Of a stretch of 64,000 nucleotides of DNA, positions 48,246 through 53,635 are shown one piece after another. The stretch is taken from contig JBDRLN010000040.1 of NCBI GenBank assembly GCA_043812955.1, forward strand, positions 685-64,684, in the 5' to 3' direction. The number at the start of each line of letters is the position of its first letter. Positions within the stretch are counted from its first letter, which is position 1. Source of the stretch: Candidatus Omnitrophota bacterium. Its GTDB lineage: Bacteria; Omnitrophota; Gorgyraeia; Gygaellales; Profunditerraquicolaceae. The notes under the pieces are model-generated. The model was not told the DNA's origin, searched no databases, and saw only the letters and a program-made list of their open reading frames with translations. The position numbers were made by a program, and so were the translations under genes.

Positions 48246-49181
48246 ATGAAAATAGGCATAGTCGGGCCCGGGGCAATGGGATGTTTATTCGCCGCCTATT
48301 TATCCAAGGCTGGCGCGGATGCGGATATCTGCTTAATAGATAACGATAAGGAAAGGGCTGCGAAAATCAGCCAGCAGGGTATATTAGTTGAAGGTATCTC
48401 CGGAAATTGGCAGGCTAATGTCAAGGTTACTGCTGATATACAGCAATTGGGTTTTTTAGATTTGATAATCTTTTGCGTAAAATCATATGATACTAAAATA
48501 GTCGCAGCCCATATCAAGCCTTTGGTAGGCGTTAATACCCTGGTGCTTACCCTGCAGAATGGAATCGGAAATATAGAAATTATCAGCGAGATTATCGGCC
48601 AGGATAAAGTGATCGCGGGTGTTACTAATCTCGGCTCAACCTTAATTAGCGATGGCCATATAAGGCATGCGGGCCTGGGAGAGACTTTGATCGGCAGGCT
48701 GGATGGAAAGCTGCCTGCCCAGATGCGCTCTTTAAGGGAGATTTTTAACCGGGTGGGTTTGGATGCCCGGATATCCCGGGATATAAAAAGCTGGTTATGG
48801 TCAAAGCTAGTGATTAATGCCGGCATAAATCCTCTTAGCGCCATAACTCGGTTAAATAATGGGCATTTGGTGGAGATAGAGACTGTGCGCAAGATAATGC
48901 GCGAGGCAGTTACAGAGGCCCTAAAAGTAATCAAGCGAAAAAGGATTAAGCTTATTTTTGATGATCCCTTAGCTAAGGTAGAAGCAGTATGCGAGGCAAC
49001 GGCAAATAATGTATCCTCGATGCTTCAGGATGTCTTAAGGAGCAAGCGCACCGAGATAGATTTTATTAACGGGGTAATTGTGCGCTTGGGCCAAGAGTTA
49101 GGGGTTTTAGTTCCGGTTAATTCACTTTTGGTTGACTTGGTTAAAACCATTGAAACAAGCTACCGCTTGCATTTAAAATGA
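48246..49181 (+). CDS. panE: 2-dehydropantoate 2-reductase (ketopantoate reductase)
   Basis: MKIGIVGPGAMGCLFAAYL Rossmann N-terminus. ApbA C-terminal domain. RBS GGAGG upstream of ATG 48246. Confidence 0.8.
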   Translation: MKIGIVGPGAMGCLFAAYLSKAGADADICLIDNDKERAAKISQQGILVEGISGNWQANVKVTADIQQLGFLDLIIFCVKSYDTKIVAAHIKPLVGVNTLVLTLQNGIGNIEIISEIIGQDKVIAGVTNLGSTLISDGHIRHAGLGETLIGRLDGKLPAQMRSLREIFNRVGLDARISRDIKSWLWSKLVINAGINPLSAITRLNNGHLVEIETVRKIMREAVTEALKVIKRKRIKLIFDDPLAKVEAVCEATANNVSSMLQDVLRSKRTEIDFINGVIVRLGQELGVLVPVNSLLVDLVKTIETSYRLHLK

Positions 49182-49561
49182 ACTTATTGCCCGGGAAAAA
49201 TATTTTAGTTATTGACGATAATATAAATAACAGCGATGTGCTAAAATTGTGTTTAGAAGATGCGGGCTATAGAGTATTTATCGTGGCCAGCGCACTCCAT
49301 GGCCTGGAAAAAATTAAGACTGAGAAAATAGATTTAATTATTTCAGATTTAGCCTTGCCGGGCCTGGATGGATTCGGGTTATTGACTATACTTAAGAGTG
49401 ATCCTCTGACTAAAGAAATACCGGTTTTAATCCTGACTAACAGGGATTCCAGGAGCGAGCTAGAGGAAGCGTTAAAATTAGGGGCAGTTGATTGTGTAGT
49501 AAGATATAGAAATCCCCCGGCAGCACTTTTGAAAATCGTAAACACGATCCTGAACATTTAA
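49178..49561 (+). CDS. Single-domain response regulator (CheY-like receiver)
   Basis: ILVIDDN...DLIISDLALPGLDG...K. Confidence 0.8.
   Translation: MNLLPGKNILVIDDNINNSDVLKLCLEDAGYRVFIVASALHGLEKIKTEKIDLIISDLALPGLDGFGLLTILKSDPLTKEIPVLILTNRDSRSELEEALKLGAVDCVVRYRNPPAALLKIVNTILNI
49512..49553 (+). repeat. 40-bp direct repeat, left copy (3' end of the first response-regulator gene)
   Basis: ATCCCCCGGCAGCACTTTTGAAAATCGTAAACACGATCCTGA, near-identical to 49997-50038. Confidence 0.8.
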
Positions 49562-49577
49562 AAAAAAGGAGGATACG

Positions 49578-49949
49578 ATGGCCAAAATAATTATGATAAT
49601 AGATGATAGTCCTCTCAGTCGGGAGATGAATCGGGTAAATTTGGTAAAGGCGGGTTATCAGGTAATTCTGGCCGAGGATGGCCTGCAGGCCATCGCTAAA
49701 TTAAAGGCAGATAATAATGTCGATCTAATTATTATGGACCTGGTGTTTTCGGGTTTGGATGGGATTAGCGTTCTTTCTGTTATTAGGGATGAGCTGGGGT
49801 TAAATAATATGCCAGTAATAATTTTTACCAACAGTGAAGATGAGGCGGATAAACAGGCGGCATTTAAATTAGGGGTGATAGAGTATATGGTTAAACATAA
49901 AGTATCCACAGATAGCCTGGTAAAATATATTAAGCAGTTGATACATTAG
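49578..49949 (+). CDS. Single-domain response regulator (CheY-like receiver), second copy
   Basis: IIMIIDDS...DLIIMDLVFSGLDG...K. About 30% identical to the first response regulator. Confidence 0.8.
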   Translation: MAKIIMIIDDSPLSREMNRVNLVKAGYQVILAEDGLQAIAKLKADNNVDLIIMDLVFSGLDGISVLSVIRDELGLNNMPVIIFTNSEDEADKQAAFKLGVIEYMVKHKVSTDSLVKYIKQLIH

Positions 49950-49996
49950 ATCTTTATATTTCTCTTATTCATTATCTTCTTCAGTGGTTGTTCCTA

Positions 49997-50038
49997 TTTC
50001 CCCAGGCAGAACTTTTGAAAATCGTAAACACGATTCTG
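49997..50038 (+). repeat. 40-bp direct repeat, right copy
   Basis: TTTCCCCAGGCAGAACTTTTGAAAATCGTAAACACGATTCTGA. Together with the left copy it brackets the second response-regulator gene. Confidence 0.8.
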
Positions 50039-50046
50039 AGCGCCAA

Positions 50047-50988
50047 ATGAAATTTATTAATTTCAAAAAATCCCTGACCCGACCTACTACCTACTATCTA
50101 CTATCTACTGTTTTGTTCTGCGGTTGTTCTTCCCCTCATCTTTATAAAGAGAACAGGATTTTGCTGGGTACTTTTGTTGAAGTAACCTCTCCTTATAAGG
50201 AAGCAGCGAATACTGCTTTTGAGGAAATATCTAGAATTGAAAAGTTATTGAGTAAATATGACCCGGAGAGCGAAATATCCAGGTTAAATAGATCCGGCGA
50301 ATTGGCTGTCAGCGACGATACATTATATATTTTAAAGAAGGCCGAGGAATTTTGGAAGCTTACTGACGGAATTTTTGACGTAACTGTTGGACCGTTAATG
50401 GACCTCTGGGGTTTTAGCGATAAAAAATATATTCTGCCTAATCCTGAGGATATCCAAAAAACACTGGAAGGGGTTGGTTTTGATAAAATAATTTTTAATA
50501 ATCAAAATAATGTGATAAAATACAAAACTTCCGGAGTAAAAATTGACCTGGGCGGGATTGCCAAGGGCTTTGCTATTGAGATGGCCGTAAAGAGGTTAAA
50601 AGAAAAAGGAATAACCAGCTGCCTGATTAATGCCGGCGGTCAGGTTTATTGCCTGGGAGATAATTCCGGGAGGCCCTGGAGAGTGGGCATAAAGAATCCG
50701 CGCAAACCGGGTATTGTTGATTATCTAGAATTAAAAGATAAAGCGGTATCTACCTCCGGGGATTATGAGCAGTATTTTATTGTAAATGGCAGGCGTTTTA
50801 CTCATATAATTAATCCTGAAACAGGCTATCCTGTTGACGCCGGGATTATATCAGTAACCGTAATTGCCGATGATTCTACAATTGCGGATTGCCTATCTAC
50901 ATCTATTTTTGTCTTGGGTAAAGCTAAGGGTTTAGAACTGGCCAAGGCAATAGCGAATGTCCAGGTAAAGGTGGTAAGCGAGAGATGA
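50047..50988 (+). CDS. apbE: FAD:protein FMN transferase (ApbE family lipoprotein)
   Basis: Lipobox VLFCGCSS and the GGIAKGFAIE signature. ATG at 50047; the ORF track starts at 49984 inside the repeat. Confidence 0.8.
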   Translation: MKFINFKKSLTRPTTYYLLSTVLFCGCSSPHLYKENRILLGTFVEVTSPYKEAANTAFEEISRIEKLLSKYDPESEISRLNRSGELAVSDDTLYILKKAEEFWKLTDGIFDVTVGPLMDLWGFSDKKYILPNPEDIQKTLEGVGFDKIIFNNQNNVIKYKTSGVKIDLGGIAKGFAIEMAVKRLKEKGITSCLINAGGQVYCLGDNSGRPWRVGIKNPRKPGIVDYLELKDKAVSTSGDYEQYFIVNGRRFTHIINPETGYPVDAGIISVTVIADDSTIADCLSTSIFVLGKAKGLELAKAIANVQVKVVSER

Positions 50989-52304
50989 GCGTTAATTTTA
51001 ATCCGATGTTTGTTTATTTCTCCCAGCTTTTGGATAAACCGGTCATTGATTCTAGCGGCCAGGAAGTGGGAGCATTGTATGATATAATAGTAAAGGCTAC
51101 GGAGGTTTATCCTCAGTCCTCGCATCTGATAATCCGCAAGGGGTCAATAAATCATCAATACGCGGTAGTGCCTTGGGCTAATGTAGCTGAGAGGGACAAT
51201 AAAGAAATAAGGCTTAATATTGGCGCCAGCGGGATCGTTTTTACTGAACATCACGATAATAAAGAAGAGCTTACATTACGCCGGGATATATTGGATCAGC
51301 AGGTGGTAGATACTTATAACCATAAAGCTATCCGGGTCAATGATATTCATCTTCTAGCAGTAGACCATTCTTTAATGATTGCCCATGTGGATATCAGCCT
51401 AAGAGGGTTATTCCGGCGTTTGGGATTTGAAGGAATCGCTGATTTTCTGGTAGGCCTATTTAATAAAAATGCCGGTTATCTTAAAACCGAGCATTTAATT
51501 TCTTGGAAGCATATCCAGCCCTTATCAGTCAATCCGGTAAGCAAGACTATTAAAGTTAATTTTCCGCAAAAGAAATTAAATTCCATCCCTGCCGCTGACC
51601 TGGGCGAGATTTTCCTGGATTTAAATATTAAGGATCAGATGGTATTATTTAAGTCCCTGGATTTAAATACCCGGGCTAAGATTTTTCTGGGAATCGATTT
51701 TAAATACCAAAGGTCATTGATCGAGGAATTACCGGATAATGATGTAGCTGCTATTTTAAACGCTATCCCTACCGATGAGGCCACAGATTTCCTGGAAAAA
51801 TTACCTAAGGACCAGGTTAACCGTTTCTTAGGGATAATGGAGAACAAACAGGCTAAAAAGCTTTCGCAATTATTAGGTTATTCCAGCGATTCTGCCGGGG
51901 GGCTTATGACCGCTGATTTTTTATCGGTGTTTAGGGATATGCCGGTAGAGGCGGTATTGGCCCAGATCAGGGAGAGGGCATTTAAGGTGGAACCTGCTCA
52001 ATTTGTATATATCGTTGATGAAAATAATAGGTTGGTCGGCGCGACTAATTTCAGGAGACTTATAATAGCCAATCCGGCTGATCCGGTATCTAAAACAACT
52101 TTTGCCAAGACTTATTTTGTGAATCTAAACTCTAGCGTAAAAGAAGTGGCTTATTTAATGGAGAAGTATAAATATTACGCGATCCCCGTAGTTGACGATA
52201 ATAATTCCCTGCAGGGGATTATTACGGTTGATGATATACTCAGTCAGGTTATTTCTATCGCCTGGCGCAGGCTCAAAAAAATAAAAGTTTTACCAAAGCA
52301 ATGA
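50985..52304 (+). CDS. Soluble PRC-barrel, MgtE N-terminal domain and CBS-pair protein with no transmembrane region
   Basis: N-terminal PRC-barrel-like segment, an MgtE_N helical domain (AADLGEIFLDL...EATDFLEKLP) and two CBS motifs (VYIVDENNRLVGATN / YAIPVVDDNNSLQGIITVDD). No TM helices. Confidence 0.7.
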   Translation: MSVNFNPMFVYFSQLLDKPVIDSSGQEVGALYDIIVKATEVYPQSSHLIIRKGSINHQYAVVPWANVAERDNKEIRLNIGASGIVFTEHHDNKEELTLRRDILDQQVVDTYNHKAIRVNDIHLLAVDHSLMIAHVDISLRGLFRRLGFEGIADFLVGLFNKNAGYLKTEHLISWKHIQPLSVNPVSKTIKVNFPQKKLNSIPAADLGEIFLDLNIKDQMVLFKSLDLNTRAKIFLGIDFKYQRSLIEELPDNDVAAILNAIPTDEATDFLEKLPKDQVNRFLGIMENKQAKKLSQLLGYSSDSAGGLMTADFLSVFRDMPVEAVLAQIRERAFKVEPAQFVYIVDENNRLVGATNFRRLIIANPADPVSKTTFAKTYFVNLNSSVKEVAYLMEKYKYYAIPVVDDNNSLQGIITVDDILSQVISIAWRRLKKIKVLPKQ

Positions 52305-52396: not shown

Positions 52397-53635
52397 ATGA
52401 ATAAGCTAAAGAAATATTGGAGAGAGCTGCTGATCTTTCTGTCCATAATGGGCCCGGGTATTATTACCGCTAATGTGGATAATGATGCCGGAGGCATCAC
52501 TACTTATTCCGTAGCCGGAGCCCATTTTGGGTATTCGCTGATCTGGTCTTTTGTCCCTATTATTATAGCCCTGATTATTATTCAGGAGATGTGCAGCCGC
52601 ATGGCTGTAGTAACCGGAAAAGGCTTGGCCGATTTGATCCGCGAAGAGTTCGGGGTCAGGGTTACCTTTTACGCTATGACTGTTTTGGTATTTTCGAATA
52701 TTTTTAATACTATATCCGAATTTGCCGGCATTGCCGCGGCGTCCGAGCTTTTTGGGATGAGTAAATATGCCTTGGTACCGGCCTGCGCGATATTTGTCTG
52801 GTGGCTAATAGTCAAGGGGACCTACAAAACAGTGGAAAAGGTTTTTTTAGCCGCCTGCCTTTTTTACCTGTCCTACATCTTTTCCGGATTTTTATCTAAT
52901 CCTGACTGGAATGAGGTGGTGGCTAGTTCTCTAAAACCCAGCATAAAATTTGATAAGGCTTATCTATTTATGCTCATGGGGATCATCGGGACCACTATCG
53001 CTCCCTGGATGCAATTTTACCAGCAGTCGTCAGTAGTGGAAAAGGAGATCAAACTAAAAAATTATAAGTATAGCAAAATGGATGTGATCATTGGTTCGTT
53101 TGTGGTGAATATCGTCGCTATTTTTATAGTGGTAGTCTGCGCCAATACCCTTTTTAAACACGGGATAAGGATAGATTCGGCTAAGGACGCGGCTTTGGCC
53201 CTTAAGCCCCTGGCCGGTAAATATTGTTTTTATCTTTTTGCCTTCGGGCTCTTAAACGCCTCAGTATTCTCGGCTTGTATCCTGCCGTTATCTACCGCTT
53301 ATTCGGTTTGCGAGGGCATGGGTTGGGAGGTAGGAGTGAATCGGCGTTTTCGAGAGGCGCCGCAATTTTATACTCTTTATACCGCAGTGATAATTATCGG
53401 GGCGGCGGTAATCCTGCTGCCGAATGTTCCGCTGATTACTGTTATGCTTATCTCCCAGGTGACCAACGGGCTTTTACTTCCTTTTGTTTTGATTTTCATG
53501 CTGCTGCTGGTTAATAATAAGCGCTTGATGGGTAACTATACAAATTCCCGGGTCTACAATATAATAGCCATAACTACAGTTGTTTTAATGATCGTGTTAT
53601 CGATAATGTTGATAGTTAGTTATTTTATCCATTAA
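52397..53635 (+). CDS. mntH: NRAMP family divalent metal (Mn2+/Fe2+) transporter
   Basis: GPGIITANVDNDAGGITTYS N-terminal signature and about 11 TM helices. Confidence 0.9.
   Translation: MNKLKKYWRELLIFLSIMGPGIITANVDNDAGGITTYSVAGAHFGYSLIWSFVPIIIALIIIQEMCSRMAVVTGKGLADLIREEFGVRVTFYAMTVLVFSNIFNTISEFAGIAAASELFGMSKYALVPACAIFVWWLIVKGTYKTVEKVFLAACLFYLSYIFSGFLSNPDWNEVVASSLKPSIKFDKAYLFMLMGIIGTTIAPWMQFYQQSSVVEKEIKLKNYKYSKMDVIIGSFVVNIVAIFIVVVCANTLFKHGIRIDSAKDAALALKPLAGKYCFYLFAFGLLNASVFSACILPLSTAYSVCEGMGWEVGVNRRFREAPQFYTLYTAVIIIGAAVILLPNVPLITVMLISQVTNGLLLPFVLIFMLLLVNNKRLMGNYTNSRVYNIIAITTVVLMIVLSIMLIVSYFIH

Follow-up and report, generated by a model that had tools for sequence, protein, structure and literature searches.

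A direct repeat around a receiver gene in Omnitrophota: probable scar of recombination between two versions of the panE-apbE locus

The second of two CheY-like receiver genes between panE and apbE in this Omnitrophota genome lies between two copies of a 41-nt direct repeat. The repeat is probably the scar of one recombination event that spliced two natural versions of the same chromosomal locus. One version, type A, has the order panE-RR1-RR2-apbE, and the other, type B, has the order panE-RR1-apbE. In the window, the 64-kb stretch of DNA that was analysed, the locus reads as type A leftward from the apbE lipobox and, to the right of it, as type B, beginning within the RR1 tail some 50 nt short of the end of that gene. 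The genes around it all lie on the plus strand, in the order ybeY, recO, panE, RR1, RR2, apbE, a PRC/MgtE_N/CBS protein and Nramp. The features of the locus are the following, in window positions.

48246-49181, plus strand: panE (ketopantoate reductase; Pfam ApbA and ApbA_C); its TGA overlaps the RR1 ATG (ATGA)
49178-49561, plus strand: RR1, a single-domain CheY-like receiver (Pfam PF00072, E=1.4e-21, 77.2 bits)
49513-49553, plus strand: repeat copy 1, within the last 14 codons of RR1 (..PPAALLKIVNTIL..)
49562-49577, plus strand: type-A spacer with the AGGAGG ribosome-binding site of RR2, conserved in L142, L145, L148 and L001
49578-49949, plus strand: RR2, a canonical single-domain receiver (Pfam PF00072, 74.8 bits; 90% protein identity to the RR2 of L142)
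49950-49994, plus strand: dead type-A apbE 5' end, encoding the short signal peptide IFIFLLFIIFFSGCS; ATG mutated to ATC, out of frame with live apbE
49995-49998, no strand: illegitimate joint TATT, assignable to neither parent
49999-50039, plus strand: repeat copy 2, part of the dead RR1 3' end, with 3 differences from copy 1
49999-50050, plus strand: complete RR1-type 3' fragment (dead), RR1 frame PQAELLKIVNTILSAK and stop; its TGA overlaps the apbE ATG (ATGA), which is the type-B junction
50047-50988, plus strand: live apbE (FAD:protein FMN transferase lipoprotein; Pfam ApbE PF02424, E=2.2e-90, 303 bits, cut-off 25.6)
50122-50129, plus strand: second GGTTGTTC lipobox-coding octamer; the first, at 49986-49993, lies 136 nt upstream
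40-mer across the joint: TTCAGTGGTTGTTCCTATTTCCCCAGGCAGAACTTTTGAA
40-mer across the type-B junction of the window's lineage: AACACGATTCTGAGCGCCAAATGAAATTTATTAATTTCAA

The two receivers are distinct proteins. Both score far above the Pfam gathering cut-off for Response_reg (PF00072; 30.2 bits), and a protein comparison confirmed the earlier estimate that they are about 30% identical. RR2 has the canonical D, T and K phospho-site residues, while RR1 has the Asp but carries Arg at the Lys position. RR1 orthologues, which are 71-80% identical, follow panE in all members of the clade and in some outgroups. RR2, in contrast, was found only in the window's immediate clade, in the type-A relatives, and a protein search with it returned the window's own protein and that of L142 alone. 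RR1s share about 43% identity with the RR2s of L145 and L148 as against 26-29% with CheY, which argues that RR2 is an old paralogue in the receiver subfamily of RR1 and not a recent copy. The panE start at 48246 agrees with its orthologues, whose N-termini read MKIGIVGPGAMG.

The acceptor site of RR1 varies among the relatives. Orthologues in the clade and in L066 have Glu at the position of the CheY D57 phospho-acceptor (for example ISELALPGLDG and ILELVLAGLDG), and the window's RR1 alone has Asp (IISDLALPGLDG). At the position of CheY K109, Arg is found in all clade members including the window (VVRYR), and Lys is kept in L066. The genes compared lie at 49178-49561 in the window, 4154-4537 in L142, 1150-1533 in L144, 3238-3621 in L145, 147-530 in L148 and about 2853-3227 in L066. 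Judged from these residues, RR1 may be a pseudo-receiver in most relatives, with RR2 as the canonical one.

The live apbE begins at ATG 50047. The lipoprotein signal peptide that it opens (MKF...LFCGC) has its homologue in L144, and the start agrees with an identical, NCBI-labelled ApbE protein in the database that is also 313 aa long. What had appeared to be a 5' extension of apbE, from GTG 49984, is not coding. The signal peptide is of the long, type-B form, MKFINFKKSLTRPTTYYLLSTVLFCGC, and the G-C of the lipobox is invariant in an alignment of 12 ApbE N-termini. Within its coding region, a 7-nt tandem repeat, ACCTACT, occurs four times at 50082-50109 (TTYYLLST), and L144 has a comparable CTATCTAC-type repeat in the same place. 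Slippage at this tandem repeat may therefore vary the length of the ApbE h-region.

A repeat search of the 64-kb window found a single pair of direct repeats at the locus, 41 nt long, at 49513-49553 and 49999-50039, identical at 38/41 positions (93%) and separated by 486 nt from start to start. The earlier note had described the end of the RR1 gene as recurring almost exactly downstream, and these values bear it out. The perfect 23-nt core of the repeat, CTTTTGAAAATCGTAAACACGAT, occurs exactly twice in the window, even with up to 3 mismatches allowed; 0.01 occurrences are expected by chance, and two or more matches were found in 0/100 shuffles. The second copy lies 3' of RR2 and 5' of the real apbE start. 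That the arrangement is no simple gene duplication also holds, since the 41-nt tail is all that is doubled and the DNA 3' of each copy is unrelated.

Several simpler origins were considered and rejected. A simple tandem duplication fails because the spacer and RR2 that follow copy 1 are unrelated to the long signal peptide that follows copy 2. A tandem duplication followed by deletion fails because the two signal peptides, long and short, resemble each other too little and there is a single RR2. Copy 2 is not a remnant of a PolX gene, although the PolX C-terminus of L066 (..AELLKTIRK and stop) overlaps the apbE ATG: copy 2 runs on as the RR1-specific IVNTIL and matches the RR1 tail at 38/41 positions. 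An intragenomic donor, in the form of a paralogue of RR1 or apbE elsewhere in the window, was looked for and none was found.

Relatives of the locus present both architectures separately. Scans of genomes and metagenomes with ApbE gave 141 loci, none closer than 73% identity, and placed the window in Omnitrophota; the informative relatives came from a protein search and contig look-ups. Type A is found in four lineages (L142/L143, L145-147, L001 and L148). In it, RR1 is followed by a 16-nt spacer with AGGAGG and by RR2, whose stop directly abuts the apbE ATG, and apbE has the short signal peptide MFIFLLSVILFSGCS. Type B, which lacks RR2 and has the long apbE signal peptide MESISSRKSLILPAIYYLLSTIFFSGCS, is known from one 7,980-nt Logan contig, L144, and from the window's own right half. 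In L144 the RR1 stop overlaps the apbE ATG (TAATG) at the junction CTGGGTCTTTAATGG. The two types differ by about 395 nt (spacer, RR2 and new start) in type A against about 42 nt (the n-region of the signal peptide) in type B. Neither type contains a second copy of the RR1 tail, so the repeat is absent from both. These relatives settle two expectations of the earlier note: presence/absence polymorphism of the unit exists, with L144 lacking RR2, and the repeat is not an ancient fixed duplication, as no relative has it.

The ApbE of the window is 86% identical to that of L142/L143, 81% to L144, 78% to L145-147 and 73% to L001. At the nucleotide level the window, L142 and L144 are about equidistant (85-89% identity), and L145 and L001 lie outside this trio (74-82%). 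Type A is thus present in the outgroup L145/L001 and type B in L144, from which it follows that the alleles coexisted or were exchanged across lineages. By homology, the short type-A signal peptide corresponds to part of the long form, namely its h-region and lipobox (LLSxIxFSGCS), and lacks the n-region. Type B looks ancestral on three grounds: outgroup ApbE N-termini are long and positively charged, the upstream PolX stop overlaps the apbE start at L066 (the one outgroup junction examined), and the type-A peptide is without the n-region. Type A would then be an older swap of the n-region for the spacer, RR2 and a new ATG. In the type-A contig L148, apbE (995-1468) is called at just 157 aa, with a jump from about codon 140 (..GITKGLAVGQAVKKK) to the C-terminal ..ELAKKIPGTEVKIIDK and stop, suggestive of an internal deletion or of misassembly of this 1.9-kb contig.

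A base-by-base reading of the window, summarized in the list above, shows how the two types are joined. Directly after the RR2 stop, positions 49950-49994 read ATC TTT ATA TTT CTC TTA TTC ATT ATC TTC TTC AGT GGT TGT TCC. This fragment aligns codon for codon with the start of apbE in L142, ATGTTCATATTTCTCTTATCCGTTATCCTCTTCAGCGGTTGTTCC (MFIFLLSVILFSGCS), with 39/45 matches counted by eye. Homology to type A stops at TCC (49994), and homology to the RR1 tail begins at about 49997-49999. The switch at 49995-49998 is abrupt, and across it the similarity of the type-A sequence TCCCAGCAGCATCTTTA to the tail TCCCCAGGCAGAACTTTTG is patchy. Rightward of the joint, the dead RR1 3' end is positionally homologous to the RR1-apbE overlap of L144. 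Positions 49999-50136 align with L144 without gaps, matching at 33/41 positions of the RR1 tail and 73/97 of the next 97 nt, and the region of the long signal peptide matches at 69/87 nt. No type-B parent was found whose tail reaches 93% identity with that of the window, L144 being about 80% identical in that stretch.

The segment between the repeats had been described as about 485 bp of DNA carrying one receiver gene. RR2 does lie inside it, but the segment also ends in a 45-nt dead copy of the apbE 5' end. The presence of this copy argues that the unit was copied from an allelic version of the same locus and did not arrive as a mobile element. Deletion between the two lipobox octamers of the window would produce the type-A layout, and deletion of one repeat with the intervening DNA would produce exactly the type-B architecture. 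The scar has also made a 20-codon open reading frame with a TTG start (49988-50050, MFLFPQAELLKIVNTILSAK), which ends at the TGA that overlaps the apbE ATG. If translated, this frame could supply termination-reinitiation coupling to apbE, which itself has no obvious Shine-Dalgarno sequence. The panE stop likewise overlaps the RR1 start (ATGA, 49178-49181); given this overlap and the type-B overlap of RR1 and apbE, the ancestral operon is, as read from its junctions, translationally coupled from panE through apbE.

The differences between the copies bear on the age of the event. Copy 2 has 6-8 differences from the orthologous RR1 tails of L142, L144, L145/L001 and L148 and 3/41 from copy 1. The orthologous tails differ among themselves at 3-10 positions, those of L145 and L001 being the same. 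A non-coding copy as old as the lineage splits should exceed coding orthologues in divergence. The dead signal peptide, at about 6/45 differences from L142, is no more diverged than coding DNA. By this measure the duplication is recent, younger than the splits of the window, L142, L144 and L145, because the copies differ at 3/41 positions even though copy 2 is non-coding, and the orthologous coding tails differ at 5-10.

Divergence along the locus bears on direction. The mismatch rate between the window and L142 falls from 0.157 on the left to 0.091 on the right, with a maximum-likelihood change point at 49525, inside copy 1 (48246-49998; permutation p ~0.006). Relative to the L145 outgroup, divergence ratios are 0.36-0.40 for RR2 and for the stretch from the RR1 tail to the dead signal peptide, against 0.58-0.75 for panE and the RR1 body (Fisher p=0.03). 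At third codon positions, RR2 diverges from L142 by 0.130 and nine other genes by 0.20-0.31 (pooled 0.246; Fisher p=0.0024), the RR2 figure being that of 123 codons and of one gene picked among ten. Compared with the closest type-A relative, RR2 and the dead apbE fragment thus show roughly half the divergence of the flanking genes. Codon constraint could account for the low divergence of RR2. The pattern is suggestive, not conclusive, that the segment from copy 1 to the joint shares a more recent ancestor with an L142-type allele than the backbone does and was inserted from another genome. To the same degree it fits a type-B recipient that imported a type-A segment.

The probable course of events, as reconstructed from these alignments, is a transfer from a type-A donor to a type-B recipient through a homologous exchange in the RR1 tail at one end and an illegitimate joint at the other. 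A type-B chromosome would have acquired a fragment of a closely related type-A strain containing the RR1 tail, the spacer, RR2 and the first 15 codons of apbE. One end of the fragment would have entered by homologous recombination within the RR1 tail of about 41 nt, with copy 1 as the probable exchange site; the 41-nt repeat is the sole homology common to both borders of the inserted DNA. The other end would have been closed by the illegitimate joint at 49995-49998. Two routes lead to this product. In the first, a type-A fragment of about 486 bp would circularise, and a single crossover would integrate it (insertion-duplication). The second is homology-facilitated illegitimate recombination (HFIR) in which the illegitimate joint would fall upstream of the point where the homologous anchor ends. 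Both would double the RR1 tail and leave behind two fragments without function, the dead 5' end of an apbE and the dead 3' end of an RR1. We know of no competence or other DNA-uptake route for Omnitrophota.

The outcome would be a strain that gains the canonical receiver RR2 and retains its own apbE allele, which is no longer directly coupled to a full upstream gene. The 41-nt repeats would permit loss of RR2 by repeat-mediated deletion, returning the locus to type B. Two suggestions of the earlier note fit this reconstruction. The 486-bp unit does look like an insertion by recombination that duplicated its target, L144 representing the architecture without the unit, and the unit would be removable through its repeats, in that such a deletion would exactly restore the L144 form.

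Both routes have counterparts in systems studied elsewhere, with differences in each case. Ligated linear DNA that integrates in E. coli by a single crossover duplicates the homologous segment (PMC3240628). As in this Campbell-type insertion-duplication, the insert in the window is flanked by a direct duplication of a short homologous segment, requires one homologous exchange and one end-joining, and is reversible through the repeats. The homology is about 41-50 nt here in contrast to 109-950 bp in that study (PMC3240628), the 'vector' is a piece of about 486 bp of the allelic locus, and the process is here read from sequence alone. In HFIR, one end of the DNA is joined by homology and the other illegitimately, most often at 3-10 bp of microhomology, and deletions are the usual result (PMC3240628); the process has been reported in the naturally transformable S. 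pneumoniae, A. baylyi and P. stutzeri (PMC3240628; refs 41, 42 and 47 of PMC5361080). In the window too, incoming DNA would be anchored by homology in the RR1 tail at one end and by an illegitimate joint at the other, with allelic genes trapped beside the anchor. Classical HFIR usually deletes recipient DNA, however, whereas recipient DNA is duplicated here.

Displacement at T6SS effector-immunity, Rhs and CDI loci leaves orphan gene fragments (PMC5361080). There as here, a conserved upstream anchor gives entry to an allelic module, which displaces the resident downstream part without removing it, and the fragments left behind record the history of the locus. The window differs in having no toxin-immunity selection, in its 45-nt and 52-nt dead fragments in place of functional orphans, and in recording a single event and not an array. 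Small variable segments of the 'insertion coupled with deletion' kind distinguish E. coli strains (PMC3240628), and types A and B are likewise set apart by a single replacement, shorter than 500 bp, in a conserved backbone. Unlike these segments, the window also preserves a hybrid with both variable segments.

Transfer in the opposite direction yields a topologically identical product, but is unlikely. A type-A chromosome would have received a type-B fragment with the RR1 tail, the long signal peptide and part of apbE. The homologous exchange would then lie inside apbE, at the right-hand end of the fragment, and the lipobox would mark the illegitimate joint at its left-hand end. In favour of this direction, the first 120 or so nt of mature apbE are marginally nearer to L144 (0.92) than to L142 (0.90). 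Past about 50200, however, apbE is nearer to L142 than to L144 with no B-like tract seen, and sliding-window identity revealed no right-hand crossover inside apbE. Among the RR1 tails, the one that copy 2 most resembles is the window's own and not that of L144. The low-divergence segment, RR2, lies to the left of the joint with its boundary in copy 1, which fits imported type-A DNA better.

It is improbable, more so than the reverse transfer, that the window preserves an ancestral intermediate. Under this explanation, the RR2 segment was inserted once in a type-B ancestor; a deletion from one octamer to the other, over 136 nt, then produced type A, and a deletion across the 41-nt repeats brought type B back. 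The geometry of the locus allows both deletions, neither of which disturbs the reading frames, and the presence of type A in the outgroup of the window/L142/L144 trio leaves type B inside the trio in need of explanation. Yet only 3/41 positions separate the two copies, the second of which is non-coding, while orthologous coding tails whose split is no older than the supposed event show 5-10/41 differences. The dead peptide is an apbE signal peptide (LLSxIxFSGCS), so the segment came from a locus that already had RR2 before apbE, which places type A first. Parallel deletions would also be required in several type-A lineages.

An assembly artefact, a contig chimera of type-A and type-B strains co-occurring in a metagenome, is very unlikely. 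In its favour, the window belongs to a metagenome-assembled genome, its ApbE is listed in the database on one 67,379-nt NCBI contig, and the repeat copies differ by SNPs as strain variants do. The junction has no independent observation: exact-protein look-ups with the window's RR1, RR2 and ApbE found no contig, so the chimeric junction was not re-observed in an independent assembly. Against this, the sequences on each side of the joint share no long exact word, and graph assemblers join only at shared k-mers; the junction at 49985-50010 should therefore exist in reads. A repeat-induced loop, moreover, would yield neither the ATG-to-ATC change nor the TATT filler.

Least credible, with a single small gene between direct repeats and its presence/absence polymorphism in its favour, is a mobile gene cassette (integron, transposon or MITE) whose repeats are a target-site duplication or attachment sites. 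Transposons, IS elements and MITEs are marked by terminal inverted repeats and a short target-site duplication of 2-14 bp, and a 41-nt repeat is far longer than the target duplications of transposons. The cassette-like insertion proposed earlier does not fit, as RR2 occupies the same place in four other lineages without a flanking repeat, the unit holds a fragment of the neighbouring apbE, and no hairpin, terminal inverted repeat or recombinase accompanies it. For an attC-like hairpin, the DNA folds of the two copies gave -3.3 and -4.3 kcal/mol (z = -1.0 and -1.8) and the 121-nt junction gave z = -0.5, none of them significant. At the unit ends (49554 and 49998) there are no terminal inverted repeats, nor any relevant inverted repeats, and an Rfam search gave no match. 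An IntI integrase and attI are absent among the neighbours ybeY, recO, panE, apbE, the MgtE_N/CBS protein and Nramp. No recombinase or transposase gene lies nearby, and the unit contains no transposase open reading frame. The gene table of L142 adds PhoH, 7TMR-HD, PanB, a tRNA synthetase and PPDK as neighbours, and all the neighbours looked at are housekeeping genes.

The locus lies in a variable part of a conserved neighbourhood. The backbone ybeY-recO-panE and apbE-MgtE_N-Nramp, with a variable segment between panE and apbE, is conserved in about 25 genomes. Across Omnitrophota the panE-apbE interval (L003-L025, L066 and L094) is a gene-content hotspot that ranges from 70 bp in L015 to 3.6 kb in L018. 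Most often it holds a PolX-like gene of 569 aa, in some genomes together with a 273-aa gene of secreted or lipoprotein-like type, and in L022, L066 and L094 RR1 is followed by PolX. Downstream of apbE, the PRC-barrel, MgtE_N and CBS protein (50985-52304) is soluble, lacks the MgtE membrane domain and lies directly 5' of Nramp (52397-53635), and the pair is kept in most relatives. This protein may be a cytoplasmic regulator of the Nramp transporter.

The RR2 locus is a case of ordinary bacterial genome micro-evolution, with no new mobile element, regulatory mechanism or protein family, and the scar in the window adds a further example to a kind of event that is already known. It is a clean natural example, since both parental architectures and the hybrid can be aligned base by base. 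For annotation, it means that two features are pseudogene debris: what looks like an N-terminal extension of apbE, and the additional 'RR1-like' tail. It is a long shot that the repeat-flanked RR2 unit is a functional reversible module, in which excision restores the coupling of RR1 to apbE, re-acquisition from type-A neighbours reinserts the unit, and populations switch between the two. If so, the lineage would alternate between signalling architectures with one receiver and with two, and likewise between the long and the short ApbE signal peptide, and selection would keep the locus polymorphic. Under the preferred reading, transfer of a type-A segment into a type-B chromosome, the gene-content polymorphism between panE and apbE in Omnitrophota would be exchanged between close relatives by recombination anchored on a few dozen bases, and the two vestigial fragments would record the addition of a gene to a conserved operon in an uncultivated phylum.
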